Positions 3,526 to 56,587 are shown, counted from the stretch's first letter. The stretch: DNA of 64,000 bases from a virus (IMGVR_UViG_2823949316_000001:5531-69530); one strand, 5' to 3'. Notes: generated by a model from the sequence alone, not told the origin. Numbers and translations: made by a program.

Positions 3526-3762
3526 ATGGGCAGCATCAAAGAGATCGACACCAATCAGCGCGCCTTCCTGGGCAAGCTCGACGAGCTTGAGAACCGCGCT
3601 CACGCGGTAGGCCACACGCTGACCAGCATTTGCGAGCTGTCCGGCGTTGCCCGGGCCACCCCTGATCGCTGGCGCAAGAGCACGCCCAACACCATCAAGC
3701 TCGTCGACAAGCTCGAGGCCGTGGTGGTCGAGGCGGAAAAGCAGGCGGCCAAGGCCCAATAG
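3526..3762 (+). CDS. Cro-like small HTH DNA-binding regulator (78 aa)
   Basis: ORF-track protein with putative HTH ...TLTSICELSGVARATPDRWRK... First gene of the rightward replication operon, divergent from the recombination operon. Confidence 0.5.
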   Translation: MGSIKEIDTNQRAFLGKLDELENRAHAVGHTLTSICELSGVARATPDRWRKSTPNTIKLVDKLEAVVVEAEKQAAKAQ

Positions 3763-5413: not shown

Positions 5414-5416
5414 TCG

Positions 5417-5875: not shown

Positions 5876-5896
5876 CACGGCAACATCGACAACAAC

Positions 5897-5920
5897 AAAG
5901 GGGCCTCTGGCCCCTTTCCT
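5897..5920 (+). terminator. Rho-independent terminator after ssb
   Basis: GGGGCC-TCT-GGCCCC stem-loop followed by TTTCCTT. Confidence 0.55.
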
Positions 5921-5936
5921 TCGACCCGAGGGACTT

Positions 5937-6167: not shown

Positions 6168-6616
6168 GCGATCAAAAACCGACCAACCCCAAGGACATCA
6201 TCGGCAGCACCAAGCTGCCGCTCCACCTCTGGCCAACCACGGCGACCGCCATGGGCTGCATCGGCCTGCTCGAGGGCATGCTGAAGTACGGCCGCCAGAA
6301 CTGGCGCGAGGCAGGCGTGCGCGCGTCGATCTACGTCGATGCCTGCAAGCGCCACCTGGACGCCTGGTTCGAGGGCGAGGAGTGCGCGCCGGACAGCGGC
6401 TCGCCGCACCTGGCCAACGCCATCGCCTGCCTGGCCATCATTATCGACGCCAAGGCTGCCGGCAAGCTGGTGGATGATCGCGCCTACAACGGCGAGGGCT
6501 ATCGCAAGCTCGTCGAGGAGCTGACGCCGCAGGTGGCGCACCTGCAGGAGCTGTTCAAGGACAAGACCCCGCACCACTACACCATCGCCGACAAGGATGC
6601 CGCCAGTGGCCAGTGA
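6164..6616 (+). CDS. Hypothetical phage protein (150 aa); resembles dATP/dGTP diphosphohydrolase N-terminal domain proteins
   Basis: ORF-track protein, ATGA-coupled to the upstream gene. The motif LPLHLWP...KYGRQNWREAG is recalled from phage DUF proteins; the functional assignment is weak. Confidence 0.5.
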   Translation: MSDQKPTNPKDIIGSTKLPLHLWPTTATAMGCIGLLEGMLKYGRQNWREAGVRASIYVDACKRHLDAWFEGEECAPDSGSPHLANAIACLAIIIDAKAAGKLVDDRAYNGEGYRKLVEELTPQVAHLQELFKDKTPHHYTIADKDAASGQ

Positions 6617-7052
6617 AGGTACAACCCAGCGCCAAATCTGGCTCGCCCTGGGTCGAGTGTCCCGCCTGTTCCGGCTCAACACCGGTCGTGGCTGGATCTC
6701 GAACCTTGGGCCGAATGGCGTGACCCGCCTGCAGGACGGCTCGGTGCTGGTGAAGGCTGCGCGATCGATCTCGCTCGGCCTGGCCATGCCGAATGGCGAC
6801 CCGGTGAAGGGCGCATGTGACTTGCCCGGCTGGACGACCGTCGAAGTAACGCCTGAGATGGTTGGCAAGAAGATTGCTGTGTTCACGTCCGTCGAGGCCA
6901 AGGCGTCAAAAGGTGGTCGGGTGTCGCCTGATCAGAAGAACTGGCTCGACCAAGTAAAAGCCGCTGGCGGTATCGCCGGCGTTGCCAACTCGCCAGAATC
7001 CGCACGCGAAATTATTTCCGAGTGGGCTGCGCAGGTCGGTGCAAATTTGTAG
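6597..7052 (+). CDS. VRR-NUC domain nuclease
   Basis: ...QIWLALGRVSRLFRLNTGRGW... followed by D/E/K catalytic residues. Size (about 150 aa) is typical of VRR-NUC. The start is ATG 6597 or in-frame GTG 6606. Confidence 0.6.
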   Translation: MPPVASEGTTQRQIWLALGRVSRLFRLNTGRGWISNLGPNGVTRLQDGSVLVKAARSISLGLAMPNGDPVKGACDLPGWTTVEVTPEMVGKKIAVFTSVEAKASKGGRVSPDQKNWLDQVKAAGGIAGVANSPESAREIISEWAAQVGANL

Positions 7053-7267
7053 TAGCATTGTGACTTGTTGGATCAGCCGGGTGGCAGCCCGGCTAATTAC
7101 AGCTTCATCCCAGATATTCACGGCTTCATTGCTGCGACTCCCGCGGCCATAGGCCACTGTAGGTTAAGGGCTAGACACCGGTTAGCTCCCGGTGTCGAAG
7201 AGCGCTTTCTGCTGAGCGCCTGCCCGCTTTTTATTTACCAGCGGATAGACCCCGGGCAGAGGGACAA

Positions 7268-10150
7268 ATGGCTCAAGTACCAGCATCAACAATAGAAAGG
7301 GCAAAAGCTGACATCGTCGGTACGATTTCCAAGTACCTTGAACTCAAGAAAGTAGGCCAGGAATACGAGGCCTGCTGTCCATTCCATTCCGAGAAGACTC
7401 CGTCTTTCCGTGTCGTACCGGAAAAGCGCTTCTTCTACTGTTTCGGCTGCGGAGCTGGCGGTGATGCCACTGACTTCGTCCAAGACTTCGAAAGCATCGG
7501 CTTTCGTGATGCCATAGCGCGCATTGTTAATGACCAGTCCATTGGTGACGCCGTTCCCAAGGCCCGACAGACGGTCAAAAAAGAGGTCGAGGCCGAGTGG
7601 GAGCCAGTCGTTCCAGTGCCGGCCAATATCAAGCAGCGGCCCATGGATACCTTCAACCGTCGCAAGGGCGGTGAGTGGGAGAGGCTGGTCAGCAGCAAGC
7701 GCTGGGAGTACCGCGACGCCAATGGCGGACTGATCGGCTACATCTGCCGCTTCGAGCTGCCCGGTGGTGGCAAAGACGTCATCCCTCAGACCTACTGCGT
7801 TAACAAGCAGACCGGCGAGATGCGCTGGAAGTGGCTGTCGTTCGCGAAGCCGCGCCCGATCTATGGTCTCGACAAGCTGGCGAAGCATCCGCTCGCCCAG
7901 GTGATCCTCGCTGAGGGCGAGAAGGCGGCAGACGCCGCCCAGGCGCTGTACGAGGCGGCTGGCATCTCGCGTGACAAGCTGGTGGTGGTCTCCTGGCCGG
8001 GCGGCGGCAAGGCCGTGCCTCACGTCGACTGGTCACCCCTGGCGGGCCGCAACGTGGGCCTGTGGCCCGATGCCGACCAGAAGCCTTACGTCGACACGCA
8101 CCCCAAGGCCGGCCAGCTCATGCCCTTCATCGAGCAGCCGGGCGCCGTGTGCATGCTCGACATCGCCGAGCGCATCGAGGGTCAGGTCAACTCCCTGAAA
8201 TTCATCATGCCGCCGGAAGGTGTCGAGGATGGCTGGGATCTGGCCGACGCGCTGCCGGCCGGCTTCAACCTGCTGGCTCACACCCGGGCAGCAGCCATGC
8301 CGATCGCCGACTTCCGTGAGAAGCACGTTCCGGCCGCTGAGCCAGAGCAGATCATGCCCTGGGACGACGAGCCGGACGCTGATGACATCGCGCTGGCCTG
8401 TGGGGTCGATCCTGCGCCGGTCGCCGAGCAGCAGGCCCAGGCCCCAGCACCAGCCGCCCCGCAGCCGAAGCCGGCGCCGGGTGATGACTGGGAAGACCCG
8501 CTGATCAAGAACGGGCACTTCACCATCCTGGGCTACGACCGCGGCAAGTATTACTTCTTCGTCCACGAGAAGCGTCAGGTCATGGCCTACCAGAAGGGCG
8601 ACTTCAGCGACGCGGGCATGCTCGAGCTGGCTGAGATCAACTGGTGGGAGGAGCACTTCCCGGGCGAGCGGGGCAGCATGAACAAGAAGATGGCCCTGAA
8701 CTGGATCTTCCGCACCGCCAACCGCCGCGGCGTCTACGACCCGGAGCGCGTGCGCGGCCGCGGCGCCTGGACGGACAACAAGCGGGCCGTGTTCCACCAT
8801 GGCGGCCATCTCACCGTCGACGGCGTCTACACCGACATCACGGCCATGCGCTCTGCCTACGTCTACCAGGTCGAGCGGAGCATCCCGGCTCCAGCCGTCG
8901 AGCCCATGACCGACGAGGAGGGTTCCTGGCTGGTCAGCGTCGCCGAGATGGCCCGCTGGAGCATGGCCGGCAGTGCTGCCCTGCTCGCTGGCTTCGTCAT
9001 GCTCGCGCCGATCTGTGGCGCGCTGCCGTGGCGCTCGCACATCTGGCTGACCGGCGGCGCCGGGTCGGGCAAGTCCACCCTGCAGAGCAAATACGCGGCC
9101 TCGCTGCTGCGCGGCGTGTCGGTGTACGCCACCGGCGACAGTACCGAGCCCGGCATCCGCCAGAGCCTGCAAGCTGACTCCCTGCCGGTGCTGATCGACG
9201 AGATCGAGTCGAACAACGACAACGACAAGCGCCGCGTCGAGAACATCATCGGCATGATCCGCAAGACCTCGACCGAGAGCCAGGCCCAGACGCTGAAAGG
9301 CACTGTGTCCGGAGACGGCCAGAGCTTCCACGTCCGCTCCATGTTCTGCCTGGCGTCGATCAACGTGAACATGCCCAGCAAGGCCGACACCGACCGCCTG
9401 ACCAAGCTGGTGCTGCGCCCGCCGATCGCCGACAGCCGCGACCACTGGGACAAGCTCGAGGCCGAGCTGAACAAGATCGAGGAAGACGAGGACATTTCAA
9501 GCCGCCTGCTGGCGCGCGCCCTGGGCATGATGCCGGTCATCCTGGAGACCGTGAAGGTGTTCCGCCGGGCTGCCGCCAAGCACTTCGGCACCCAGCGCCA
9601 GGGCGACCAGTTCGGCACCCTGCTCGCCGGCTCCTGGTGCTTGCAGAAGAGTACCGTGCCTTCCGAGGAGGAGGCCATGGTGCTGATCCGCGGCTACAAC
9701 TGGAATGAGCACGTCGAGGACAACGACCAGGACGACGCGGCCCGCGCTGTCGAGGCCCTGCTGGGCGCCAAGCTGCGCGCCAAGAGCCTCGGCGGTAGCA
9801 CCGACGAGTACAGCGTCTACGAGCTGATCCGCGAGTGCTCTCCGATGCACCGCCACAACGTCATTGATGTCGGGGTCGCAGACGCGACCCTGAAGCGCCA
9901 CGGCATCCGCGTCGAGCACGCCACCGGCGAGCTGTGGTTCGGTACCAGCGTGACCAACCTGGTGCAGATGGCCAGCGGCATGTCCTTCGTCACCGACCTG
10001 CGCGGCCAGCTGCTCAGGGTCAAGGGCGCCAAGCGCATCAGCGGCAGCAAGAAGTTCAACGGCTCGGACAGCAAGGTGGTGAGCATCCCGCTGGATCCGA
10101 TCCTGGGCGATGAGAAGGAGGCGGGCAGCAGCGACGATCTGCCGATCTAG
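7268..10150 (+). CDS. Phage DNA primase (CHC2 zinc finger, DnaG-like) fused to a P-loop NTPase (helicase/origin-binding-like) domain, 960 aa
   Basis: N-terminal CCPFHSEKTPSFRV...FYCFGCGAGGD zinc finger. Central acidic, Pro-rich linker. C-terminal Walker A LTGGAGSGKST and Walker B VLIDEIE. Confidence 0.85.
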   Translation: MAQVPASTIERAKADIVGTISKYLELKKVGQEYEACCPFHSEKTPSFRVVPEKRFFYCFGCGAGGDATDFVQDFESIGFRDAIARIVNDQSIGDAVPKARQTVKKEVEAEWEPVVPVPANIKQRPMDTFNRRKGGEWERLVSSKRWEYRDANGGLIGYICRFELPGGGKDVIPQTYCVNKQTGEMRWKWLSFAKPRPIYGLDKLAKHPLAQVILAEGEKAADAAQALYEAAGISRDKLVVVSWPGGGKAVPHVDWSPLAGRNVGLWPDADQKPYVDTHPKAGQLMPFIEQPGAVCMLDIAERIEGQVNSLKFIMPPEGVEDGWDLADALPAGFNLLAHTRAAAMPIADFREKHVPAAEPEQIMPWDDEPDADDIALACGVDPAPVAEQQAQAPAPAAPQPKPAPGDDWEDPLIKNGHFTILGYDRGKYYFFVHEKRQVMAYQKGDFSDAGMLELAEINWWEEHFPGERGSMNKKMALNWIFRTANRRGVYDPERVRGRGAWTDNKRAVFHHGGHLTVDGVYTDITAMRSAYVYQVERSIPAPAVEPMTDEEGSWLVSVAEMARWSMAGSAALLAGFVMLAPICGALPWRSHIWLTGGAGSGKSTLQSKYAASLLRGVSVYATGDSTEPGIRQSLQADSLPVLIDEIESNNDNDKRRVENIIGMIRKTSTESQAQTLKGTVSGDGQSFHVRSMFCLASINVNMPSKADTDRLTKLVLRPPIADSRDHWDKLEAELNKIEEDEDISSRLLARALGMMPVILETVKVFRRAAAKHFGTQRQGDQFGTLLAGSWCLQKSTVPSEEEAMVLIRGYNWNEHVEDNDQDDAARAVEALLGAKLRAKSLGGSTDEYSVYELIRECSPMHRHNVIDVGVADATLKRHGIRVEHATGELWFGTSVTNLVQMASGMSFVTDLRGQLLRVKGAKRISGSKKFNGSDSKVVSIPLDPILGDEKEAGSSDDLPI

Positions 10151-12947: not shown

Positions 12948-14036
12948 TCAGTCGGGGCGCTTGCCCAGGGCGACGATCTGGTTCGGGGCCTTGGCCCAGC
13001 CCTGCAGCTCGGCGCGAGTGAATTTCCCGGCGTCCATCTGCTCGGCGGCGTACCCACTGAAGCCTGCGCAGTGATAGAGCTTGTGCTCGGTATGCCATAG
13101 GCAGAACACCGGCTCACCTGGCGGCCAGATCAGGTCGCGCAGCACCTCGGCGCGGCGGTAGTCCATTCGCGCCACGGCGGCGTTCAGCTCGCTCTCCAGG
13201 CGCTTGCGACGCAGAGACTTGTTGCGCTTGCAGCGCAGGTCGCCTGGGTTGTCGACATAAAGCTCGAAGCTGGCTTCGTTGGTGACAGCATACTTGCCGC
13301 TGACCACCCACCACATGTTGTTGATGTTGTAGTGGGCGATGCCGGTCTGCGCGCGACCCTTCCGGTCGAAGAAGTAGACGGGCTGGCCATGCTCGAGCAG
13401 CTTGCCATCGGCTGACTTGCGGTTGCTGTTGAAGCAGCTGGAGAGGCCAGGGCTGCTATTGGCGTCGCGGTAGGCCTGCCAGTCTCCCTTGAAGTGCCAG
13501 CTCTCGGAATAGCAGCCATTCAGGTATTCCATAGCCGTTGGCGGCTTGAGTCCGCGCCGCCGTGAACCTCGTCCAGGGCTCTGCTCTTCGAAGGTATAGC
13601 CGATGAACACGTTACAGAGGTAATCGCGGATCCGGCGCCGGGTTCGCTCCATCTCCAGGCGCAGAAGGTAAGGTGCGACGGCTTCTTTGTTCGACTCGTA
13701 GCGGCCCTTGTGATCTGGCCTGGTCGGGGTATTAGCCGACTGCCACATTTCCAGCCTGATGCAGCGCCCACTGAGATCCAGCAGGGCGTGCAGGTGTTCA
13801 CCCTTGCTGCATGTGCGATGGTTGTTGGCGATGATTTTATATTGATCAGCTTCATCCCACGGGCCGACAGTCCAGCCGATGCGGTTCAGTTGCTGGATGA
13901 TCCGAGCGAAAACTTCCCGCTTGAACTTCTTCCCCCAAGCGGTGCGCTCTTCCCAGCTCCCGCCCAGGCCTTCCTCCGAGATATACAGGGCGGCATCGCC
14001 GAAGCGGACAGTGCCCTGTCGATTGATTTGTGGCAT
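12948..14036 (-). CDS. Hypothetical protein (362 aa)
   Basis: ORF-track protein with balanced composition. Its start is preceded by TAAGGAAAGGAAATG and an upstream GCGCCCC-AGC-GGGGCGC hairpin. Confidence 0.7.
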   Translation of the reverse strand: MPQINRQGTVRFGDAALYISEEGLGGSWEERTAWGKKFKREVFARIIQQLNRIGWTVGPWDEADQYKIIANNHRTCSKGEHLHALLDLSGRCIRLEMWQSANTPTRPDHKGRYESNKEAVAPYLLRLEMERTRRRIRDYLCNVFIGYTFEEQSPGRGSRRRGLKPPTAMEYLNGCYSESWHFKGDWQAYRDANSSPGLSSCFNSNRKSADGKLLEHGQPVYFFDRKGRAQTGIAHYNINNMWWVVSGKYAVTNEASFELYVDNPGDLRCKRNKSLRRKRLESELNAAVARMDYRRAEVLRDLIWPPGEPVFCLWHTEHKLYHCAGFSGYAAEQMDAGKFTRAELQGWAKAPNQIVALGKRPD

Positions 14037-14074
14037 TTCCTTTCCTTAGCGCCCCAGCGGGGCGCGGTAGTTGA

Positions 14075-14686
14075 TCAGGACGCGGCCTGCAGCGCGTCGT
14101 TGTGCTTCTTGATTTCAGCGTGCAGGGCTCGCTCCGTCACCTCGACGAACCCGTCTGGGATGACAACCGGGGCGGCTTCCGTCGAGTCGTCATCGCGGTA
14201 TGGCAGGCTGCATGCGACCATCGTCTTTCCGTGGAGCAGGTAGGTCGATGCGTAATTGATCGAGCGGCCACTGAACACGCCGTCTGGCAGGCCAAGGCGA
14301 GCCGCGAAAACCGTGTCGATGGTCGGCCGACGGTATGAATTGGCGCCCTTCAGCTCATCGGGAATCGCGGGGGCACCCTCGCACAGGGTGTCGTAGAACT
14401 TCTTGCCGCGGCCCCGGACGGTGTACTTGAAGTAGTAGACCCCGTTCTCGCAGATGCGCTCGCCGCCCTTGAAGTCAGCGAGCGACGGGCCTACGCGCGG
14501 CGGGTTCTCTTCCTGGCAACGCTTGCAGAAGAACATGGGCACGCTGAATGGGTGCATGCCGAGCTCGTCGAATCCGAGCGCTTCGACCTTCTCCTTGAAG
14601 AACCGATAGCGGTTGGCGGCCTGGGCAGTGATTTCCTTGAGCACTTCAACGTGACGCGGGTCTGTCGAGGTGATGTAGTAGCGCAT
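14075..14686 (-). CDS. Hypothetical protein (203 aa, MRYYITSTDPRHVEVLKEITAQ...)
   Basis: Real start is an in-frame ATG at 14686, preceded by TAAGGAAAGGAAATG and a GCGGCC-AGC-GGCCGC hairpin. The upstream 224 codons of ORF 14075..15358 are Pro/Arg/His-rich read-through of other genes. Confidence 0.7.
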   Translation of the reverse strand: MRYYITSTDPRHVEVLKEITAQAANRYRFFKEKVEALGFDELGMHPFSVPMFFCKRCQEENPPRVGPSLADFKGGERICENGVYYFKYTVRGRGKKFYDTLCEGAPAIPDELKGANSYRRPTIDTVFAARLGLPDGVFSGRSINYASTYLLHGKTMVACSLPYRDDDSTEAAPVVIPDGFVEVTERALHAEIKKHNDALQAAS

Positions 14687-16491: not shown

Positions 16492-16513
16492 TTGCTCAAA
16501 TTTGATCAAGCAA
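16492..16513. promoter_or_regulatory. Palindromic operator TTGCTCAAATTTGATCAAGCAA overlapping a leftward promoter (-35 TTGATC, 18-nt spacer, -10 CACAAT)
   Basis: Same family as the sites at 12670 and 15686. Lies in the 117-bp gap between the Rha-like gene and the 95-aa gene. Confidence 0.6.
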
Positions 16514-16540
16514 TTGCGATGACCGTTCGTCGGGTTTCCC

Positions 16541-17224
16541 TTAAAACAAACGCTCTTCCGCGCTACCTACCAATGCCTCAAGCAGCAGGTCGGCTTGCAC
16601 AGACACGACCTTCGACGAGTGCCCGCCAAAGCTCTTGGTGCCGTGGCGCTCGGCGCCATCAATGGCGCAGAACATCTGGCCCAGGCTGGCGGTCTCGACG
16701 CCGGCGCGCTGTGCCAGGCCGACCATCGCTGGCGTGGACATGCCGAGCCAGATCCGATCGCCGACCTTGCGCAGTCCGAACTCCTTGACGATTTCGCGTC
16801 GTTCGCCGGTGCCGTCTGCCAGCTTCTCTATGGCGGCCACGAACCCCATCTGACTGCCGACCGAGGCACGCAGCTCTGTGTGATCGACGTATGTCCTGAC
16901 CAGCGGGACAGCCGGCTGTATGCGGTTGAACACTGCGCCGATGCTGTCGCACTGGGCTTTCTTCAGGTTCAAGTGAACGGCCAGCGCCATCAAGTCGCCG
17001 ACCCGCAGCCGCGTATCCTTCTCATAAGCGAGCGAACCATCACGCTGCGGCAGCACGTCTTTGTCGAGTGTTCCGGCCGTCACCATGTCGCAGAGGTGGC
17101 GGATAAAGGCGCGGTGATCCATGCCGAGTTTATCGGCGACGATTTTGCTGTTGATGCTTGCTGCCATGGCGAGCCCCATAAAGTGGTTGTGGTTGTTGCG
17201 GTTGGAATTGTCCCATGCCCACAA
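16541..17224 (-). CDS. Phage regulatory protein, Rha-family-like N-terminus (antirepressor-like), about 227 aa
   Basis: N-terminal ...SINSKIVADKLGMDHRAFIRHLCDM... matches the Rha pattern S.LIAE.FGK.H.NVLR.I recalled from phage Rha proteins. The start codon is ambiguous (17224, 17179 or 17167). Confidence 0.5.
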   Translation of the reverse strand: MWAWDNSNRNNHNHFMGLAMAASINSKIVADKLGMDHRAFIRHLCDMVTAGTLDKDVLPQRDGSLAYEKDTRLRVGDLMALAVHLNLKKAQCDSIGAVFNRIQPAVPLVRTYVDHTELRASVGSQMGFVAAIEKLADGTGERREIVKEFGLRKVGDRIWLGMSTPAMVGLAQRAGVETASLGQMFCAIDGAERHGTKSFGGHSSKVVSVQADLLLEALVGSAEERLF

Positions 17225-17269
17225 CCTTGTCGCAACCGTTGCAACCTAGTTGACGGGCAGGGCGCGCAG

Positions 17270-17740
17270 CCAGAAAGCAGGGGCGACCGACCGCAAAAAC
17301 TGCGGAAACTGCTTTTTCGCCTGTATTTGCTGGCTGTTTGATCGAGGGGCGACCGACAAATGCAGTCTGGTCGCTCTTTTGGTCGCGCCCAGTGCCGCGA
17401 CTAATGCCCAAAAGGCGACCGGGCCGCGTCTCCCGTTTCTGCCAATGAATACAGGGCATTTGGCGGGGAGCGTCCAAAGCGACCGCTCCAGCCGGAAAAA
17501 GGTATAAGTAGGAATATACGGTTGTGCTGGTTGTGAATTGATAACACAACTATCACAACCAAGTTTAAGTCCTATAGGGGGCTTATATATATGGTTTCTT
17601 GGTTTCTCTTATTATTATTATTTAAATAAGTTATTGTTTTTATTATTATTATAGGGCCTTTTATGGGGCAACCAGAGGGGCAACCAAGGAGCAACCAGCA
17701 GCAGCGACCGGTCGCCCTAGTGACCGTCCGTCAACTTCTC
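17270..17740. repeat. Iteron-rich, AT-rich island (candidate replication origin / regulatory hub)
   Basis: At least 7 copies of GCGACC(G/A) in both orientations (17283, 17345, 17367-17390, 17412, 17479, 17708). About 100 bp of very AT-rich DNA (17560-17660) carries two (TTA)3-4 runs in a 63% GC genome. Three direct GGGCAACCA-like repeats at 17665-17700. TTGTG...CACAA dyad at 17531-17560. Confidence 0.5.
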
Positions 17741-17820
17741 GCAAATTACTCGGAATTATTTACCACCAGGCCAAGTCACCTGTAGAATTGCCCGCAGCAC
17801 TTACCGCTGGGGCAGCAGCA

Positions 17821-18345
17821 ATGGTCGAATACTTCACGCTGGAAGAACTACCGGACAGACCCATGTTCCGGTGCGAACGCAGGAACGCCACGCTACAGGT
17901 CTCGGCATGCGCCGGGATGTGGAGCGAAGCCAACGGCAAAGCCGCACCCGAACGTCTCGACCGTTGCAAGAATTGCCCACTGGGCGCAAAGCATGCCGGG
18001 GTCGGTGAAATCTCACTGTCACCGCTCAGGGGCATGAGCATCTGCGCTCGCTGTCACCAGGGCACCACCCGGCTCATTCGCAAGCACCTGTGCGTCAGCT
18101 GCTACAACCGCGAACGCGAGTTCAACCTGGGCCGCAATGCCAAGGGCTCAGCACCCGTCAAGCATCCTCCGCTGCACAACATCGAGATCCGCTACCAGGC
18201 CGGGGAAGTTCTCCAGCGCCTGGCGATGCCTGTTGTGTCGAGCGAGGAACTGGTGGTCGCAGCGCTCAGGGATACGAGCAAACAAGTTACATTCGCATTC
18301 AGCGGTAAGCGGCCAGAGATGCCGCAGGGAGAGTTGTTTGTATGA
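17821..18345 (+). CDS. Hypothetical Cys-rich protein (174 aa)
   Basis: In-frame ATG (MVEYFTLEELPDRP...) in ORF 17788..18345. First gene of the long rightward gene string. Several CxxC-type pairs. Confidence 0.5.
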   Translation: MVEYFTLEELPDRPMFRCERRNATLQVSACAGMWSEANGKAAPERLDRCKNCPLGAKHAGVGEISLSPLRGMSICARCHQGTTRLIRKHLCVSCYNREREFNLGRNAKGSAPVKHPPLHNIEIRYQAGEVLQRLAMPVVSSEELVVAALRDTSKQVTFAFSGKRPEMPQGELFV

Positions 18346-18728
18346 GCGCGCAGAATTCACAGGGTCGGCCGGCTGATAGCGTTATCATCGGGCAAAATCA
18401 CGTGCGCGCGATAGAGAGGGAAAACACCTCCGGTTGGCGCCTCGAGCAGCACTGCTGCCGGAACTGCTTCGGGCGCATCGCCTCGATCAAGCATCCTGAC
18501 GGCGGTCGCACGTACCAGTGCACCAACTGCGGCCTGGAAGGCCACGGCCACAAGCCTGACGTGGTGTGCTCGTGCGGCACCAAGCTGCGCAAGTACAAGG
18601 GCGACGGCCGCACCGGCGTGGTCATGGTCGACGCGGGCATCCGCTGCCACCCGAACAAGCGGGTCTCGCCTGAGTTCCCGTCGCTGATCGTGGCCAGCTA
18701 TGGCGGCGCCCAAGCGGAGGGTGTGTGA
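18342..18728 (+). CDS. Zinc-ribbon protein (128 aa; CCRNC...CTNCG...CSCG)
   Basis: ORF-track protein. ATGA-coupled to the upstream gene. Confidence 0.5.
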   Translation: MSAQNSQGRPADSVIIGQNHVRAIERENTSGWRLEQHCCRNCFGRIASIKHPDGGRTYQCTNCGLEGHGHKPDVVCSCGTKLRKYKGDGRTGVVMVDAGIRCHPNKRVSPEFPSLIVASYGGAQAEGV

Positions 18729-23736: not shown

Positions 23737-24189
23737 ATGACCATGGCGGAGCTGACCGAGGTGACCGGCATCCCGTCGCGCGTGCTCGCCGCGCAAAAGC
23801 GTGCAGAGGGCTGGGCCAAGGTGGTCAAGTCCGGCCAAACCGAAGAGGCCGCAGAGGCGGTGATCCGCTTCAACGAGTGGAAGATGCAGGTCGCCGAGGT
23901 CAACGCCCGCGATGGCGAGGCCATGCCGAACCTGGCCGTGCCCCTGCACGAGGACGCCGTGCACAAGCTGCTCGAGCGCCACAAGGCCGAACTGATCGCG
24001 CCGCGCGTCCTGTCGCAGGAGGCGATCAAGATCCGGCACAGCGACCCGAACATGGCGTTCCAGAAGGCGAAGCTGGCCAAGATCACGGCCGAGACGCTGG
24101 ACATCCTGCATCGGGCCGAGCGCCGGGCCTTTGGCGTGAAGGACGACGAGAAGCCGGGCGGCGGCGTGGTGGTGGTGGAGCGGACATGA
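23737..24189 (+). CDS. HTH DNA-binding protein (about 150 aa); possibly a small-terminase-like or regulatory protein
   Basis: ATG 23737 (alternative in-frame GTG at 23671) in ORF 23338..24189. N-terminal ...MAELTEVTGIPSRVLAAQKRAEGW... Stop overlaps the ParB-MTase start (ATGA). Confidence 0.4.
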   Translation: MTMAELTEVTGIPSRVLAAQKRAEGWAKVVKSGQTEEAAEAVIRFNEWKMQVAEVNARDGEAMPNLAVPLHEDAVHKLLERHKAELIAPRVLSQEAIKIRHSDPNMAFQKAKLAKITAETLDILHRAERRAFGVKDDEKPGGGVVVVERT

Positions 24190-25694
24190 GCGACCTGAGC
24201 AAGATGATGGGCCTCGACCCGGACGTGCCGCAGATCAAACTGCGCCCGCTCGACAGCCTGGTGGCCTACGCCCGCAACAGCCGCACGCACTCGCCGGCCC
24301 AGGTCGAGCAGCTGCAGGCCCTCCTGCTGGAATACGGCTGGACGAACAGCGTCCTGATCGACGACATGGGCATCGTCGCCGGGCACGGGCGCTGCATGGC
24401 CGCTGAGGCGATCTACAAGCGCGGCGAGCAGATCAAGTTCCCGAATGGCACGCCGATCCCGATCGGCATGGTGCCGACCATGGACGTCACCGGCTGGAGC
24501 GCGCAGCAGCGCCGGGCGTACATCATCGCCGACAACCGCTCCGCCCTGTCCGCGGGCTGGGACGACGAAATGCTGAAGCTGGAGCTGGCCGAGCTGAAGG
24601 AAGCCGACTTCGACCTGTCGCTGACCGCCTTCGACGAGGACGAGCTGGCGGCGCTGCTGGCGCCGGAGATCGAGCTGCCCGAAGACAAGGATCCGGACGC
24701 AGCACCTGCAGCACCCGATGAGCCCGTCAGCGTGCCGGGCGACGTGTGGGTGATGGGCGCGCACCGGCTGTGCGTCGGTGATGCCACCAGCGTCGATGCC
24801 TGGGATCGCCTGCTGGGCACCGAGCAGGTCGATATCGTCTGGACAGATCCACCCTACAACGTCGACCAGGGCCGCAAGAACCGCGAGCAGGACAAGTGGG
24901 ACGGCGGCAACCGCGCGGACACGGGCGCGATCGCCAACGACAAGATGTCGCCGGCCGAGTTTTCCGAGTTCCTGCAGACCACCTTCGCCACCCTGTTCGG
25001 CGTGATGAAGCCAGGGGCGCCGATCTACGTGGCGCACTCCGACCTCGAGGGCCAGACCTTCCGCAACGCCTTCGCCGACGCCGGCCTGCACCTGCAGTCC
25101 TGCCTGGTCTGGAAGAAAGACCGGATGGTGCTGGGGCGCATGGACTGGCAGAGCATCCACGAGCCGATCCTGTACGGCTGGAAGAAGGGCAGCGCGCACC
25201 GCTGGTACGGCGGCCGCAAGAACACCAGCGTGATCGACCTGGGCGACGGCTCGCCGTTCACCCGCATGGAGGATGGCCGGTACCAGGTGCGCATCGGCGA
25301 GAGCGTGCTGGTGGTGTCGGCGGATGCCATGGTCGAGCAGCATCCGTCGTCGATGTTGTTCGAGCCCAAGCCGGCGAGCAGTGGCCTGCATCCGACGCAG
25401 AAGCCCGTTGCCCTTGTCGAGCGGATGCTGAAGCAGTCCGCACGTGCCGGCGACCTGGTGGCCGATGCCTTCGGCGGATCCGGCAGCACGCTGATCGCCG
25501 CCGATCGCCTGGGCATGTCGGCACGCCTGATGGAGCTCAGCCCGAAGTTCGCCGACGTGATCGTGCGGCGCTGGGAGCACTACAGCGGGCGCAAGGCGGT
25601 GCACGCGGTGACCGGCGAGGAGTTCCCGGGCGAGGGCGAGGCCCGCGCGCTACCGCCGCAGGTTGATGACCTTGACGACGAAGCGTTGTTCTGA
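24186..25694 (+). CDS. ParB-like nuclease domain fused to beta-class N6A/N4C DNA methyltransferase
   Basis: In-frame ATG (MSDLSKMMGL...) in ORF 23877..25694. ParB-like N-terminus (KLRPLDSLVAYARNSRTHSPAQVEQL). Motif IV VWTDPPYN followed by C-terminal motif I DAFGGSGST. Confidence 0.85.
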   Translation: MSDLSKMMGLDPDVPQIKLRPLDSLVAYARNSRTHSPAQVEQLQALLLEYGWTNSVLIDDMGIVAGHGRCMAAEAIYKRGEQIKFPNGTPIPIGMVPTMDVTGWSAQQRRAYIIADNRSALSAGWDDEMLKLELAELKEADFDLSLTAFDEDELAALLAPEIELPEDKDPDAAPAAPDEPVSVPGDVWVMGAHRLCVGDATSVDAWDRLLGTEQVDIVWTDPPYNVDQGRKNREQDKWDGGNRADTGAIANDKMSPAEFSEFLQTTFATLFGVMKPGAPIYVAHSDLEGQTFRNAFADAGLHLQSCLVWKKDRMVLGRMDWQSIHEPILYGWKKGSAHRWYGGRKNTSVIDLGDGSPFTRMEDGRYQVRIGESVLVVSADAMVEQHPSSMLFEPKPASSGLHPTQKPVALVERMLKQSARAGDLVADAFGGSGSTLIAADRLGMSARLMELSPKFADVIVRRWEHYSGRKAVHAVTGEEFPGEGEARALPPQVDDLDDEALF

Positions 25695-29572: not shown

Positions 29573-30787
29573 ATGGAAGCGCCGTACCAGCTTCACCTGG
29601 GCGACTGCCTGGCAGTGCTCAAAACCCTACCTGACAACTCCGTCGACAGCATCGTCACCGACCCTCCCTATGGCCTGAGCAAAGAGCCCGACATGCTCGA
29701 GGTGTTGCGCCACTGGATGGCCGGCGACGACTACCAGCACAAGGGCGGCGGTTTCATGGGCAAGACCTGGGACAGCTTCGTGCCCGGGCCGAGCGTGTGG
29801 CGCGAGAGCCTGCGCGTGCTCAAGCCTGGCGGCCACCTGCTGGCGTTCTTCGGCACGCGGACGCAGGACATGGGCACGCTGGCTATTCGTTTGGCTGGCT
29901 TCGAGATCCGCGACAGCATCGCCTGGGTGTACGGGTCGGGTTTCCCGAAGTCGCACAATCTTGAGGGCGAGTGGGAAGGCTGGGGTACTGCGCTCAAGCC
30001 GGCGCTGGAGCCGATCGCGGTGGCGCGCAAGCCATTCCGCGGCACCGTGGCGACCAACGTGCTGGCGCACGGCACTGGGGCGCTGAATATCGATGGGTGC
30101 CGGGTCGGTACGACGGTCGAGACATGGCCAAAGTCGAAAAGTTACACTCGACAGGAGCCTGGCGGTCGAGGCGAGAAGGAGTACCAGCTTACAGGAGAGG
30201 CGCCCGCCGGCCGCTGGCCCGCCAACCTGATCCACGACGGCAGCGACGAGGTGGTGGAGCTTTTCCCTGCGCAGGCCGGCGCAGCTGCTCCGGTGCGAGG
30301 CACTGAGGACAGCAAGGCCAGCGTCGGCAATGTGACTGGCGAGCGTGAGCGTGTTCCTGGCGCCTTCCACGCCGACAACGGCAGCGCTGCCCGCTTCTTC
30401 TACTGCGCCAAGGCCAGCCGCAAGGATCGCCACGAGGGCCTGGATGATCCTGGCGCTCAATTCAAGCGCGGCACCACCCTGCGCCAGGTCGAGAACACCG
30501 CGACAACCGGCAACAACCACCCGACCGTCAAGCCCACCGACCTGATGGCCTACCTGTGTCGGCTGGTGACGCCGCCGGGCGGTGTGGTGCTTGACCCGTT
30601 CATGGGTAGCGGCAGTACCGGCAAGGCCGCCATGCGCGAGGGCTTCCGCTTCATCGGCTGCGAGCTGTCGCCGGAGTACCTGGCGATCGCCGAGGCGCGC
30701 ATCGAGCACGAGCTGGTGAAGCGCGCGCCTGAGCCAGCGGTCGTGCAGGCGGTGCAGCAGGATATGTTCGCCCAGGAGGCCGTGTGA
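29573..30787 (+). CDS. Beta-class N6-adenine/N4-cytosine DNA methyltransferase (404 aa)
   Basis: Motif IV SIVTDPPYGL near the N-terminus and motif I DPFMGSGSTGKAA near the C-terminus. Confidence 0.85.
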   Translation: MEAPYQLHLGDCLAVLKTLPDNSVDSIVTDPPYGLSKEPDMLEVLRHWMAGDDYQHKGGGFMGKTWDSFVPGPSVWRESLRVLKPGGHLLAFFGTRTQDMGTLAIRLAGFEIRDSIAWVYGSGFPKSHNLEGEWEGWGTALKPALEPIAVARKPFRGTVATNVLAHGTGALNIDGCRVGTTVETWPKSKSYTRQEPGGRGEKEYQLTGEAPAGRWPANLIHDGSDEVVELFPAQAGAAAPVRGTEDSKASVGNVTGERERVPGAFHADNGSAARFFYCAKASRKDRHEGLDDPGAQFKRGTTLRQVENTATTGNNHPTVKPTDLMAYLCRLVTPPGGVVLDPFMGSGSTGKAAMREGFRFIGCELSPEYLAIAEARIEHELVKRAPEPAVVQAVQQDMFAQEAV

Positions 30788-48985: not shown

Positions 48986-51589
48986 ATGAGCGAAGTCAAA
49001 ATCCGCCTCCCGGCGCCCCATCCTGTCCAAAAGAAAATCCTCAGTCGCCCGACCCGCTTCAATGCCATCTGCATGGGCGAGAAGGGCGGCAAGACCACGC
49101 TCGGCATCGAGGTGCTGATCATGTCAGCCCGCGGCGCATTGGCCGGCAATGCGCCGGTAGCCTGGTTCGCCGCCACCAAGGAAGAGCTCGTCGAGGTCAA
49201 GCGCATCGTCCGGCGCGCCATCGACCAGGTCATCAAGCGGCAGCCCAACGCGCGCCGCATCGAGCTCGCCAACGGCAACGCCATCGACTTCTACTCGCTC
49301 GACGAGATGCCTAAGAGTTTCCCGCAGTACGGCCTGATCGTGGTCGACGACGTGTGCCAGGTGCCCCTGTTCCTCGATACCTGGGAGGACGTGCTGAGCG
49401 AGTGCCTGCGCGAGCACCAGGGCGAGGGCTGGTTCCTGTCGAACGCCTACGGCAAGCGCAACGACTTCTACCGCCTGTACCAGATCGGCAACCTGGATCC
49501 GGACTGGTCTTGCTGGCAGTTCCCGTCCGACTGCAACCCGTTCCTGCCCGAAGACGCGAAGGCCGAAATGGCCGAGGTCACCGAGCTCGAGCTGCGGCAG
49601 CGGTTCGGCGCCGAGTTTCTGGATGTCGCCGTCGAGCTGACGGCTGCGCAGCGCGTGCTGAAGCAGGGCGAGACCTTCATCCAGTGGTGCGAGCGCCTGG
49701 AGCAGGATGGCCTGAAGGTGGACGGCGTCCCGTTCACGCTGTCCGACCGCCCCGCCATGCGCTTCATCTACGAGCTGATCCCGTCCACCAGGGAGGAGGC
49801 CTTCGAGCGCGTCGACGTGATCATGAAGTGCACCCAGGTGGGATTCACGGTGATGGAGATGCTGGCGGCCATCTACCTGGCCCTGCGGTTCGCCCCGGCC
49901 AAGATCGGCATGTTCATGCCGTCGACGTCCCTGGCGTCGGGCAAGTCCTCTGAGCGCTTCCTGCCGATCGCGCGCACCGTGCCGGCCGTGCACCGCCTGA
50001 TGACCGAGAAGAACGCCTCTGGCGGCCGCGGTGGCGAGGGTAACGTTCTGATCAGGAACCTGGGGCCGTCGCGCTTCCACTTCCTCTGGACGTCCGGCGC
50101 GACCGCGACCGAGTCGTTCCCGATGGACGTCATCTCCTTCGACGAGGTGCAGGAGATGCTGATCGCCGACATGGAGAAGGTGGTCGAGCGTCTGTCGGCG
50201 TCCAAGCTGAAATACACCCTCATGGGCAGCACGGCCAACTGGCCAGACAGCGACATCCACTGGTGGTACCAGCGCGGCACCCAGCACCAGTTCCACACCG
50301 AGTGCCCGCACTGCGGCCTGGGCCAGGTGCTCGACGAGCACTTCCCGGAGTGCATCCAGTTCGACCCGCAGCACCCGAAGCGCAAGCAGCGCGGCGACAC
50401 CATCCTGCTCGGCGAGTACCGCTACCAGTGCCACTCGTGCAAGGGCTGGATCGACGACCCGCAGCAGGGCGAGTGGATCGCCAAGAACCCGGCGGCCGAC
50501 ATCCGGTCGGTGCACTTCCCGCAGTTCCTGTCGCCGACGATCAGCCCGCGCAACATCATCGAGGCGTTCCGCAACAACGACAGCATGAAGGGCTTCTACA
50601 ACCGGAAGCTGGGCAAGCCGTACACCGACCCGTCGCAGGTGCCGGTGAACCTGGAGATGCTGAACCAGTGCGCCGCGGAAGGCATGCGCCGGGGCGTGGT
50701 CTGGAAGGATCGGGCGCGCAACACCTTCATGGGCATCGACCAGATGGGCGCCTACAACGTGGCGATCATCAAAGAGCGCATGGACAGCGGTCACCAGGCC
50801 GTGATCCACCTCGAGTACATCTTCGACGCAGACCCGTTCATGCGCTGCAGCAAGCTCATGGAGCTCTACGGCGTGCAGTGCTGCGTGGTCGAGACGCTGC
50901 CTAACTACAACGATGCGAAGCGCTTCGCCCAGCGCCACTCCGGCAAGGTGTTCCTGGCCGGCTACGGCAACATGGACAATGAGATGCTGATCTGGGGCGA
51001 CACCCCGAAAAGCAACTCATCCGATCGCCGCACGGACGAAGAAGCGCTCGACCGCTACACGGTTCGCCTCGACCAGTACAAGTGCATGCAGGTTTCGATG
51101 GCCCGCTTTGCGACGCAGAGCTGCCTGTTCCCGGATCCTACCGCGCTGGTGCAGATGTATGCCGAGAAGGGCGAGAAGGCGCTGACGCCGGTCTGCAAGG
51201 ACGTGGCATTCTTCCACTTCACGCGCACGGCGCTGGTGGTCGAGAAGGACGAGGACGAGAAGAAGTACAAGCGCAAGGTGGTCAAGGTCGGCATCGACCC
51301 GCACACCAGCTATGCCAACATGCTCTGCGACGTGGCCTGGTCGCGCGCGCACGGCACGAGCACGTTCATCCTGCCGAGCGGCGGCACCGATCACCAGAAG
51401 GCCCTGGAGCCCGGGCAGATCGATATTCCTGACCAGATCGCGGCAGTGATGTCTCAGCTGCAGATTTCGAGGGACGAGGTGTGCGGGAACTGCGTCAACC
51501 GCGACGAGGAGACCGGCCTGTGCTCTGAGCAGCGGGTGCTCACCGCGAAGGCCGATCCTGGGTGCTGGGCGTTCATTGCCAAAGGCTGA
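48986..51589 (+). CDS. Putative terminase large subunit (GpA-like: N-terminal ATPase, internal zinc ribbon, C-terminal nuclease), 867 aa
   Basis: Walker A-like MGEKGGKTT. Acidic Walker-B-like IVVDDV and ISFDEVQEM. CPHCG...CHSCKG zinc ribbon. The portal gene follows after an inserted leftward cluster. No small-subunit gene was identified directly upstream. Confidence 0.55.
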   Translation: MSEVKIRLPAPHPVQKKILSRPTRFNAICMGEKGGKTTLGIEVLIMSARGALAGNAPVAWFAATKEELVEVKRIVRRAIDQVIKRQPNARRIELANGNAIDFYSLDEMPKSFPQYGLIVVDDVCQVPLFLDTWEDVLSECLREHQGEGWFLSNAYGKRNDFYRLYQIGNLDPDWSCWQFPSDCNPFLPEDAKAEMAEVTELELRQRFGAEFLDVAVELTAAQRVLKQGETFIQWCERLEQDGLKVDGVPFTLSDRPAMRFIYELIPSTREEAFERVDVIMKCTQVGFTVMEMLAAIYLALRFAPAKIGMFMPSTSLASGKSSERFLPIARTVPAVHRLMTEKNASGGRGGEGNVLIRNLGPSRFHFLWTSGATATESFPMDVISFDEVQEMLIADMEKVVERLSASKLKYTLMGSTANWPDSDIHWWYQRGTQHQFHTECPHCGLGQVLDEHFPECIQFDPQHPKRKQRGDTILLGEYRYQCHSCKGWIDDPQQGEWIAKNPAADIRSVHFPQFLSPTISPRNIIEAFRNNDSMKGFYNRKLGKPYTDPSQVPVNLEMLNQCAAEGMRRGVVWKDRARNTFMGIDQMGAYNVAIIKERMDSGHQAVIHLEYIFDADPFMRCSKLMELYGVQCCVVETLPNYNDAKRFAQRHSGKVFLAGYGNMDNEMLIWGDTPKSNSSDRRTDEEALDRYTVRLDQYKCMQVSMARFATQSCLFPDPTALVQMYAEKGEKALTPVCKDVAFFHFTRTALVVEKDEDEKKYKRKVVKVGIDPHTSYANMLCDVAWSRAHGTSTFILPSGGTDHQKALEPGQIDIPDQIAAVMSQLQISRDEVCGNCVNRDEETGLCSEQRVLTAKADPGCWAFIAKG

Positions 51590-54922: not shown

Positions 54923-56587
54923 ATGAGCGATAAAGCGATCGAAGTAGCACACAACCCAGCAGCGCCTGCCGACGAGCAGCGCGATGCCATGCGCGTCGCT
55001 CAGAAAGACGCGATGCCGTCCACCGTGCGCGATATGCTGCCGGTGGTCGAGTTCATGCAGCGCCAGATCGAAGAGCAGGACATGCACAAGGCTCTGTCGA
55101 AGCCGAATGTGATCCCGTTCCCGTCGACCGCTATCGAGAAGAAGCGCGACGGCATGCAGTCGGTCTTCCTGGACGATCGCCGGATCCAGATGCTTGGCGA
55201 CTACTACGAGCCGCCCGGCAATTTCGGCTTCGACATGATGCGCGCGATGGTCGACCAGACGCCGATCCTGTCGTCGGTGATCTTGACCCGCCAGCGCCAG
55301 ATCAAGCGCTTCTGCCGCGTGCAGGAGAGTGGCAAGGGGCCAGGGTTCGCCATCAAGCTCAAGGACACCTCTGCAAAGCAGGGCGATTCCGAGCGCCAGT
55401 CCATCCAGCTGCTGGAAGGGTTCTTCACCAACTGCGGGTGGGAGGCGAGCCCCAGGGTGCGCAAGCGCCTGCGCCGGGATAACTTCTCCGGCTTCATGAT
55501 GAAGCAGGTACGGGACAGCCTGATCCTGGACAGCGCGCCGATCGAGACCGAGTGGAAGCGCGACCGCAAGCTCGGCATCGACGGGTTCTACGCCGTGGAC
55601 GGCGCGACCATCCGCCTGTGCAGCGAGGAAGGCTACCAGGGCGACGACGAGATTTTTGCCCTGCAGGTCGTCCAGGGCAACCTGCGGGCAGCCTACACCT
55701 ACGACGACCTGATCTACGAGCCGCGCAACCCGCGCACTGACGTGATGGTTGGCGGCTACGGCATGTCCGAGACCGAGCTGCTTATCAAGGTGGTCACCGG
55801 CCTGCTCAATGCCATGACCTACAACCTGAAATTCTTCGACAGCAACAACATCCCGAAAGGGATGCTGCACCTGTCCGGCGACTACTCCGAAAGCGACCTG
55901 AATTCGTTTAAACGCTACTGGAACGCCATGGTGAAGGGTATCAACAATGCCTGGAGCCTGCCGGTGATGGTCTCCAAGAACCAGGAGTCCAAGGCGTCGT
56001 TCGAGAAGTTCGGCGTCGACATCGATGACGTGATGTTCGCCAAGTGGATGACCTTTCTCACGTCGATCGTCTGCGCGATCTACGGCATGGCCCCGGACGA
56101 GATCAACTTCGAGTCGTTCACGGCCGGCAATACCTCGGCGCTGTCCGGCAGCGACACCGAAGAGAAGCTGATCAACTCCAAGGACAAAGGTCTTCGCCCG
56201 CTGCTCAGCCACTTCGAGGACGTCTTCAGCGATTTCATCGTCGCCGAGTTCGGCGACAAGTACGTGTTCCGCTGGACTGGCCTGGACGAGATGAATCCGG
56301 AGCAGGCCTGGAAGGAAGAGGAGGCCCTGAGCACGCTGAACGAGGCGCGCAAGGCCCGCGGCTGGGACGAGATCAAGGACGAGATCCTGGGCAACGCGCC
56401 ACTGAACCCGAACCTGATGGGCGCGTACATGCAGGCCCATGCGCCGGCAGGCGATGAGCCCGAACAGTCGGCGGCACCCCAGGGCAAGCCTGCTCCCAAG
56501 GCCGATCGCAACCCGGAAGACGACGCCGAGGATGGCGAGGATCTGGCGAAGTCGTTCGGCCTGCCAGTTTTCAGGGTCGACCCATGA
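54923..56587 (+). CDS. Putative portal protein (554 aa)
   Basis: Size, position between the terminase and head genes, and a highly acidic C-terminus. Assignment by synteny only. Confidence 0.55.
   Translation: MSDKAIEVAHNPAAPADEQRDAMRVAQKDAMPSTVRDMLPVVEFMQRQIEEQDMHKALSKPNVIPFPSTAIEKKRDGMQSVFLDDRRIQMLGDYYEPPGNFGFDMMRAMVDQTPILSSVILTRQRQIKRFCRVQESGKGPGFAIKLKDTSAKQGDSERQSIQLLEGFFTNCGWEASPRVRKRLRRDNFSGFMMKQVRDSLILDSAPIETEWKRDRKLGIDGFYAVDGATIRLCSEEGYQGDDEIFALQVVQGNLRAAYTYDDLIYEPRNPRTDVMVGGYGMSETELLIKVVTGLLNAMTYNLKFFDSNNIPKGMLHLSGDYSESDLNSFKRYWNAMVKGINNAWSLPVMVSKNQESKASFEKFGVDIDDVMFAKWMTFLTSIVCAIYGMAPDEINFESFTAGNTSALSGSDTEEKLINSKDKGLRPLLSHFEDVFSDFIVAEFGDKYVFRWTGLDEMNPEQAWKEEEALSTLNEARKARGWDEIKDEILGNAPLNPNLMGAYMQAHAPAGDEPEQSAAPQGKPAPKADRNPEDDAEDGEDLAKSFGLPVFRVDP

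Follow-up and report, generated by a model that had tools for sequence, protein, structure and literature searches.

What is the role of a long intergenic gap, rich in short repeats and in AT, at the point where the genes of a prophage diverge, and, if it is a replication origin, which protein acts there? The gap lies in a 64,000-nucleotide stretch of DNA (IMGVR_UViG_2823949316_000001:5531-69530; here called the window). It measures 654 bp between a leftward gene (16541..17167, minus strand) and a rightward gene (17821..18345, plus strand) and houses the island of repeats considered here (17185..17715). The primase-helicase encoded in the window and the product of the rightward gene match, at 100% identity, proteins that Microvirga lupini encodes on a 1.44-Mb contig, and the window is therefore an integrated prophage. 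All parts of the window that were examined are phage-like. Recombination and replication genes (399-10150) are followed by a block of small leftward genes, the island, and a rightward block that includes genes for DNA methylases and for a regulator of the AraC type, and then by the genes for terminase (48986..51589) and portal (54923..56587). This gene order is that of the 86- to 96-kb phages Jeremy, Dolphis, Touem01, PHB04, ST4, and Mecenats66. An integrase is annotated in Jeremy, Touem01, PHB04, and ST4, and the phage family is temperate. Neither Jeremy nor those halves of the relatives' genomes that were examined have an annotated DNA polymerase. Likewise, no Rep- or O-type initiator was found among the window ORFs scanned, and no neighbor of the island matched a Rep or O family.

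As the first-pass annotation had observed, the region parts the leftward from the rightward transcription domain: ORFs with coding-like codon-position GC diverge at the gap, and none was detected within it (17225-17787). Indels among the relatives are not multiples of three. An RNA gene was considered and dismissed, as an Rfam scan of 16500-18500 returned nothing near significance. Cumulative GC skew has no turning point at the island, in a measure that is confounded here by gene orientation in any case.

Comparison with related phages reduced the repeats of the island to a single unit. At least seven GCGACC(G/A) repeats in both orientations had been reported previously, and eight matches to GCGACCR were indeed found between 17283 and 17715 (plus strand, 17283, 17349, 17415, 17479, and 17704; minus strand, 17368, 17380, and 17709), versus 45 in the other 63.5 kb. 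However, GCGACC proved to be only one variant of a 6-bp unit, GGTYKY, which unites the GCGACC, GCAACC, ACAACC, and GAAACC repeats and is represented in the window by GGTCGC, GGTTGC, GGTTGT, and GGTTTC. Between 17170 and 17820, 21 copies of GGTYKY were counted against 3.3 expected (Poisson p = 7e-11); for the longer form YGGTYKY, the count is 19 and the expectation 1.75 (p = 6e-14). Elsewhere in the window, the copy number never exceeds 14 per 650 bp, so that the island is the densest stretch. Measured in 600-bp segments, the best contains 19 iterons versus at most 6 elsewhere in the 64 kb, and the window has this single iteron cluster. The 21 units of the island are found in both orientations, spread over 530 bp.

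From left to right, the island begins beside the leftward gene with a promoter-proximal cluster in which GGTTG occurs three times, followed by three copies of CAACC (17185..17247). A distal array (17283..17485) carries GCGACCG at 17283, 17349, 17415, and 17479, at spacings of 66, 66, and 64 bp, and includes an inverted tandem pair, GGTCGC-N6-GGTCGC (17369 and 17381), whose sequence TGGTCGCTCTTTTGGTCGC is kept in the related locus L185. Next comes a dyad composed of two copies of GGTTGTG and two of CACAAC(C) (17520..17561; GGTTGTGCTGGTTGTG at 17520-17535 and CACAACTATCACAACC at 17545-17560). This inverted repeat is 88% complementary and could form a 15-bp stem, a potential cruciform; the DNA fold of 17505-17725 has a z score of -3.2 relative to shuffles. 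The dyad had been noted before as TTGTG/CACAA, together with three direct repeats that were located at 17665, 17677, and 17688. At the right end, the palindrome GCGACCGGTCGC consists of two iterons head to head (17704/17710) and sits between the right iteron triple described below and a rightward promoter-like site. It had been placed at 17707, which was approximate, as it occupies 17704-17715.

The AT-rich core of the island, a putative DNA-unwinding element, spans 80 bp at 17.5% GC (17583..17662), in a window with a mean GC content of ∼0.63. It is the lowest 80-bp GC value in the 64 kb, the next lowest being 33.8%; GC content is 15.5% across 17585-17655 and 24.8% across 17560-17660. The very AT-rich stretch of the first-pass annotation is thus confirmed, along with the TATATATAT element (17584-17592) and two (TTA)4 runs (17609-17620 and 17640-17651) that it contains. 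The further claim that the GCGACC repeats flank this stretch required revision: six of the eight copies lie 100 to 300 bp to the left, so the GCGACC copies are not symmetric about the core. The flanking elements are instead other variants of the unit, GGTTTC (two copies) on the left and GCAACC (three copies) on the right. The left pair, GGTTTC-TT-GGTTTC (17593..17606, plus strand; starts at 17593 and 17601, 8 bp apart), points at the core and has positional counterparts in ST4 (CTTGGTAGCTTGGTAGC), Jeremy (CGGTTACCTTGGTTAC), and PHB04 (CTTGGTATCTTGGTATC). The right triple, of the form GG(G/A)GCAACCA (17665..17697, minus strand), comprises GGGGCAACCA at 17665 and 17677 and GGAGCAACCA at 17688, 11 to 12 bp apart, with GCAACC at 17668, 17680, and 17691 in the orientation opposite to that of the left pair. 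The triple is conserved en bloc in L185 and L187, two close relatives, and its counterpart in Jeremy is a triple of GGTAACC. The order of orientations is therefore two iterons pointing right (17593 and 17601), the AT core (17605-17660), three pointing left (17668, 17680, and 17691), and one pointing each way (17704 to the left, 17710 to the right). The array as a whole is not centered on the core, with 16 iterons to its left and 5 to its right.

The first-pass annotation had also suggested that the region might hold promoters. A promoter scan identified four promoter-like sites in the region, where 0.8 are expected. The candidate sigma-70-like promoter of the rightward gene (TTTACC, 18 nt, TAGAAT; 17759..17788, plus strand; 9 of 12 matches) lies downstream of the island rather than in it. 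A weak candidate leftward promoter, TTGCGA (17235-17230), 17 nt, GACAAT (17212-17207), was read by eye; it has 8 of 12 consensus matches, is below the scan threshold, and is overlapped by the iteron cluster at 17185..17247. No DnaA box (TTATCCACA, allowing at most one mismatch) was found in the island of the window, and none is conserved across the relatives. A strict IHF consensus beside the core is absent from the window and present in a subset of the relatives, many of which add a long alternating purine-pyrimidine tract together with the IHF-consensus site.

If the iterons are binding sites, their layout should be recognizable in other phages. Scans with an alignment of the protein encoded by 17821..18345 (hereafter Cys1) yielded 80 viral and 51 genomic loci. 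At ∼47 of these, mostly from 85- to 98-kb temperate myophages, a GGTNNC-type hexamer is enriched beside an AT valley upstream of the Cys1 homologue, with 7 to 22 copies versus at most ∼1.2 expected. The isolated relatives inspected have a divergent gap of 590 to 850 bp at this position, and the common layout is TATATA, an iteron pair, AT-rich trinucleotide repeats, and an inverted iteron triple, with more iterons upstream. By a strict automatic test, at least two opposed iterons are present on each side of the AT core in 18 of 44 nonidentical related loci, and 5 more carry the mirror image; at three loci (L092, L093, and L100) the module is inverted relative to Cys1. The iteron sequence itself differs between phages: ten types were seen besides that of the window, among them GGTTACC/GGTAACC in Jeremy and Touem01, GGTATC in PHB04, GGTAGC in ST4, and TGTAAC in Mecenats66. 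In the complete 95.5-kb genome of Jeremy, 17 of 36 GGTTAC/GTAACC hexamers fall in one 600-bp segment and at most 2 in any other, so the iteron site is unique in that genome.

Closer relatives show both conservation and wholesale replacement of the iterons. L185 and L187, the latter from a prophage of Kaistia sp. 32K, carry the same mix of GGTCGC and GGTTGC as the window, and alignment of the three loci shows the iterons as conserved blocks separated by diverged DNA. The 98-kb contigs L048 and L051 are ∼85 to 89% identical, and all ∼12 aligned iteron sites have changed between GGTTTT and GGTAAC, whereas the AT spacer and the flanks are unchanged. This comparison points to a single sequence-specific binding protein, which would be expected to impose just such a concerted change.

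Several genes beside the island were considered as the source of that protein. Cys1 is a conserved, zinc-rich protein of 174 amino acids with eight conserved cysteines (seven invariant, one conserved in at least 90%) and one invariant histidine; its fold has no match in the PDB. Cys1 was rejected as the initiator, as the protein shows 82% identity between the window and Jeremy, whose iterons differ, and 96% identity between L048 and L051, which are separated by the full iteron switch. Between these two contigs, the three nearest neighbors of the island are 90 to 98% identical. Cys1 and Cys2, the product of the next rightward gene (18342..18728), are 96 to 98% identical, and Cys2 differs by one internal change (R25K) plus the annotated start codon. 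The left neighbor differs at 22 residues, mostly conservatively. In the window, the left neighbor (16541..17167, 208 amino acids) had been labeled Rha-like. That label was dropped, as the product has no Pfam, PHROG, NCBIfam, or PDB sequence match. It is unrelated to the left neighbor in L185, which has the same iterons, and 28% identical to that in L187. Given the lack of a family match and of conservation among loci with the same iterons, a role for it as a repressor or Rha protein was rejected.

To identify what the island travels with, we turned to four phages of ∼44 kb that share only a homologue of the primase-helicase with the window and are not among the Cys1 matches. In each genome we recorded the most overrepresented hexamer in any 500-bp segment, an unbiased genome-wide scan. 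In all four, the top cluster is a GTAAC-type iteron island at or near the genome GC minimum, with opposed iteron clusters on either side of an AT core. In Acjo_20, 12 copies of TGTAAC (0.16 expected) lie directly upstream of the helicase gene at 14% GC, the genome minimum. phi1422 has 11 copies of TGTTAC (0.12 expected) at a local GC of 20%, directly downstream of the primase gene gp23; the helicase gene ends at 13996 and the island occupies 13997-14333. In MQ-4, eight copies of TGTTAC (0.09 expected) are found 1.6 kb downstream of the helicase gene (21% GC, the genome minimum), and in PY223, seven copies of CGTAAC (0.18 expected) are found 12 kb from it (24% GC, the genome minimum). MQ-4 and Acjo_20 share with the window the arrangement of pair, AT core, and inverted triple. 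The Acjo_20 helicase is 43% identical to that of the window (E = 6e-153), whereas its terminase has no similarity to that of the window. Judged from these sequence comparisons, the island travels with the helicase and not with Cys1 or the terminase, since it is found in four phages in which the helicase is the only common element.

The primase-helicase of the window (7268..10150, plus strand; 960 amino acids; phrog_35358) is accordingly the proposed initiator, and the end of its gene lies 7.0 kb from the start of the island at 17185. It consists of an N-terminal DnaG-type zinc ribbon, a P-loop ATPase at residues ∼584 to 680, and a C-terminal helix/beta-hairpin region. In the homologues of Touem01, PHB04, and ST4, a Toprim domain containing an EGYATGA motif stands in place of the zinc ribbon; we take this motif to be that of P4-alpha-type primases. 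An AlphaFold model of residues 401 to 960 (pLDDT 85) places helix/beta-hairpin modules at the C terminus. The best fold match of this model in the PDB is the SCCmec Cch protein (5dgk; E = 1e-7, TM 0.47), and further matches are to the NrS-1 C-terminal region, poxvirus D5/E5, PriRep1 with DNA (7pds), and the SaPI5 primase-helicase (7ola). As far as the modeled fold is a guide, the matches of the helicase half are all initiator or self-loading helicases, and the C-terminal modules would be expected to bind DNA.

Which part of the helicase reads the iterons is suggested by where it varies. Between L048 and L051, the C terminus is 65 to 80% identical and the ATPase core 90 to 95%, making the C terminus the most diverged part. 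The window helicase is 80% and 77% identical to those of the relatives with the same iterons (L185 and L187) and 64% identical to that of Jeremy, unlike Cys1, which is about equally close in all three. These differences hint that the helicase C terminus may determine iteron specificity, in a comparison that is confounded by phylogeny. In a search of Cys1, Cys2, and the C-terminal half of the helicase (±6 kb per island, plus 15 paired helicases), no alignment column separated loci with GGTAACC-type iterons from the others.

Taking the architecture of the island together with its relatives and its association with the helicase, we consider it probable that the island is the replication origin of the prophage, of the SaPI/P4 type. 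The comparative evidence supports this reading as far as computation can, and the concerted iteron switch and the co-occurrence with the helicase lend indirect support to binding by a specific initiator. Literature searches found no published description of this candidate origin. We infer that the iterons are bound, the core melted, and the island active as an origin, in the following manner. The 960-residue primase-helicase would recognize the 6-bp iterons through its C-terminal region and assemble on both sides of the 80-bp AT core, on two iterons (17593 and 17601) facing at least three opposed ones (17668-17715). The core would then be melted without DnaA, and the enzyme would load itself as the replicative helicase and prime, with synthesis carried out by a host polymerase. 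The other 16 iterons, on the left (17185-17561), would raise the local concentration of the initiator. Because iterons overlap the leftward promoter region, occupancy by the initiator could also be coupled to early transcription.

That overlap is also the basis of another explanation, in which the repeats are the operator array of a lysis-lysogeny or early-gene switch, and a phage regulator bound to them times the divergent promoters with no part in replication. The leftward and rightward gene blocks of this phage, which is from a temperate family, part exactly at the island, the iterons overlap the candidate leftward promoter, and the palindrome is 44 bp upstream of the rightward -35 element; moreover, the operators of heteroimmune phages also vary by lineage. 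We nevertheless regard an operator as unlikely. A regulator encoded nearby should change with its sites, yet no neighboring regulator covaries with the iterons: the window and L185 have the same iterons beside unrelated left neighbors, and Cys1 and Cys2 are nearly identical in L048 and L051, where every iteron differs. The island adjoins the helicase gene in phages whose gene order is quite different, and 21 sites around a core of 17.5% GC go far beyond what known operators need. The window has, in addition, a separate divergent control region at 3424-3811; its small gene carries a repressor annotation in relatives. A site for partition, or a nucleoprotein scaffold on which a ParB-like or ribbon-helix-helix protein would maintain the phage as an episome, is extremely unlikely. 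Short repeats in both orientations do resemble type Ib centromeres, ATP-binding proteins adjoin the integrases, and Touem01 has been reported to encode a ParA-like protein (PMC11256456). However, the ATP-binding and ParA-like genes are ∼25 kb from the island, which tracks the helicase and not any par gene; the copy in the window is integrated in a 1.44-Mb contig; and a ParB-like domain occurs in the window only once, as part of a fusion with a DNA methylase. An attP site was excluded, as integration of the prophage has left the island whole, with phage genes syntenic with Jeremy on both sides; in the relatives, the integrase is ∼25 kb away.

Packaging deserves separate consideration, since the family is cut close by. 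In Mecenats66, the headful pac cut has been verified experimentally and precedes the end of the Cys1 homologue (ORF123, 85704..14) by 14 bp, and the PhageTerm-ordered record of Touem01 ends 12 bp past the Cys1 stop codon; the pac cut of the family therefore maps to the Cys1/Cys2 junction. The small terminase might assemble on the repeats, as in the hexamers of P1 pac or the R sites of lambda cosB, and direct the first headful cut nearby. Consistent with this, the cuts in Mecenats66 and Touem01 fall 0.7 to 1.1 kb to the right of the island, and the equivalent position in the window (∼18330-18360, by homology) is only ∼0.7 kb from the AT core, on the same side. An IHF-consensus site adjoins the core in some relatives, and in PY223 the island precedes the terminase gene by 1.6 kb. 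However, the two cuts occupy matching positions at the Cys1 stop codon but stand at different distances from the island (∼0.75 kb in Mecenats66 and ∼1.1 kb in Touem01), and packaging begins with the DNA on the other side of the cut from the island. L092, L093, and L100 carry the module in inverted form, and the iteron type occurs with unrelated terminases (that of Acjo_20 lacks similarity, and the terminase genes of phi1422 are 7 kb away). For these reasons, pac recognition by the repeats is very unlikely.

A replication origin remains our preferred reading. Confirmation would give an origin to a large set of phages that have received little study, among them Phabquatrovirus, Toucanavirus, Dolphis/Jeremy-like phages, and numerous prophages and contigs from metagenomes, and also to smaller phages with the same primase-helicase (phrog_35358). 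An SaPI/P4-style start, in which the helicase finds short iterons and loads itself, would then be common in phages of Proteobacteria. The switched sets of L048 and L051, together with a dozen iteron variants, offer a ready system for studying how initiator and site change specificity together, and the combination of an AT minimum with 6-mer enrichment provides a simple rule for annotating origins in such genomes. A more far-reaching proposal, which we think improbable, is that the island is the core of a conserved replication-packaging hub in ∼90-kb temperate myophages. Firing of the origin by the self-loading primase-helicase, the two zinc proteins of novel fold that always follow, and the headful pac cut at the junction between their genes would be functionally coupled, and a switching iteron code (GGT plus three to four variable bases) would set replicon-specificity groups. 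If so, these groups would let related phages coexist or exclude each other.

Comparison with known systems places the candidate origin more precisely. In P1 pac, clusters of hexamers flank the cut, which is stimulated by IHF. The island resembles it in having two clusters of 6-bp repeats around a center and, in some relatives, an IHF-consensus site; however, the P1 cut falls between the clusters, whereas the cuts of Mecenats66 and Touem01 are 0.7 to 1.1 kb away at the Cys1/Cys2 junction. Classical iteron origins of plasmids (pSC101, pPS10, RK2, and R6K) and the lambda origin have iterons of 17 to 22 bp and a winged-helix Rep or O protein that recruits the host DnaB, and DnaA boxes are usual. 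Repeated initiator sites beside an AT-rich unwinding element are common to these and the island, and an inverted repeat between the iterons and a downstream promoter recalls classical rep promoters. The window differs in its units of 6 to 7 bp, in having no DnaA box, and in having no Rep- or O-like neighboring protein. On the strength of the unit length and the missing DnaA boxes, the candidate origin is closest to the SaPI/P4 type and not to the classical theta plasmid type. The first-pass annotation had proposed a theta-type iteron origin, with the C-terminal domain of the primase as a possible binder; the origin is supported by comparison, and it is the choice of model that has changed.

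The alpha protein of P4 combines a primase, a helicase, and a C-terminal origin-binding domain, and the P4 origin has 8-bp iterons in both orientations. The window has similarly short iterons in both orientations and a multifunctional primase-helicase as the proposed initiator. It differs from P4 in lacking a second cis cluster like crr (a single cluster is present in both the Jeremy genome and the 64-kb window) and in its primase domain, which is DnaG-type and not alpha-type. The origin-binding domain of alpha was not retrieved by PDB sequence and profile searches with the helicase, nor was it among the top 50 fold matches.

The Rep proteins of SaPIs are self-loading initiator helicases whose C-terminal winged-helix domain binds 5- to 6-bp iterons, and an SaPI origin has 6 to 12 iterons and an AT-rich center flanked on each side by two or more iterons that are opposed in orientation (PMC9371898). 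Relative to these, the island of the window is larger and lopsided, with its 21 iterons (16 left, 5 right) over 530 bp, and many relatives of the window add the alternating purine-pyrimidine tract and the IHF-consensus site. SaPIs are 15-kb satellites of Gram-positive hosts, whereas the window belongs to a 90-kb temperate myophage family, among phages of Proteobacteria. An SaPI origin lies directly downstream of the helicase gene and the island of the window is 7 kb away, although the islands of phi1422 (downstream) and Acjo_20 (upstream) adjoin the helicase gene in an SaPI-like manner. The similarities are nonetheless extensive: the iterons are short (5 to 6 bp in SaPIs and 6 to 7 bp in the window), the center is AT rich with at least two opposed iterons per side, DnaA boxes are absent from the island of the window, and iteron sequence varies between related elements. 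In both, the initiator helicase (proposed, for the window) is fused or adjacent to a primase, and the helicase half of the window protein matches the structures of Cch, PriRep1, and SaPI5 PriRep by predicted fold.

Four plus-strand copies of GCGACCG in the window, at 17283, 17349, 17415 and 17479, were separated by intervals of 66, 66 and 64 bp, or approximately six helical turns each. The intervals between these copies (17283-17479) were otherwise dissimilar to one another. Two related loci, L048 and L051, are 98-kb phage contigs that are ∼85 to 89% identical. When positions 5500-5850 of L048 were aligned with 5500-5850 of L051 (alignment A3), all ∼12 aligned iteron sites differed, reading GGTTTT in one versus GGTAAC in the other, with the spacers retained. 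The pair is a specificity-switch experiment made by nature.

In relatives of the window, we observed additional elements beside the AT-rich core of the proposed replication origin. Alternating purine-pyrimidine tracts of the CACACA or GCGTGC type are prone to form Z-DNA; unbroken tracts of this kind, 17 to 73 nt long, adjoined the core in ∼12 relatives. The tract lay ∼85 nt to the left of the AT minimum in L019, L043, L050, L068, L034, L016, and L003, and on the right side in L092, L093, and L100, which carry the module inverted. The island in the window has no long alternating tract beside its core. In a subset of relatives, the IHF consensus WATCAANNNNTTR was matched (e.g., AATCAATGACTTAGG) between the core and the right-hand iterons, at +21 to +28 nt relative to the AT minimum in L022, L047, L088, L094, and L101 and at 25535-25548 in L188. 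No match to this consensus was detected between the core and the right-hand iterons of the window.

The C-terminal 550 aa of the helicase are common to the window and to the isolated phages Jeremy, Dolphis, Touem01, PHB04, and ST4. In alignment A2 (window 7268..8470 versus L139 from 30097, L140, and L141), the primase domain of the window, Jeremy, and Dolphis is a CHC2 zinc ribbon of the DnaG type; Touem01, PHB04, and ST4 instead carry a Toprim domain that contains the motif EGYATGA. The primase domain has been swapped within one helicase family. Two methylase genes were found in the window. The first (23877..25694) encodes an N6/N4 DNA methylase that is fused to an N-terminal ParB-like domain, and the second (29573..30787), not far away, encodes a methylase on its own; relatives encode as many as four methylases.

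Another divergent gap, at 3424-3811, lies between an exonuclease gene (minus strand) and a helicase gene (plus strand), with GC content of 35% at ∼3426. Within it is a gene of 78 aa (3526..3762); the gene at the equivalent position in Jeremy and ST4 is annotated as a "SaPI-like transcriptional repressor." This gap could be the real lysis-lysogeny switch.

The headful packaging start of the family probably lies at the junction of the zinc-rich genes 17821..18345 and 18342..18728, with a predicted position of ∼18330-18360 in the window. In Mecenats66 (L183/L184), the experimentally verified pac cut is 14 bp ahead of the end of the 17821..18345 homologue, and in Touem01 (L002 4497-4509), the PhageTerm-ordered genome ends 12 bp past the stop codon of that homologue.
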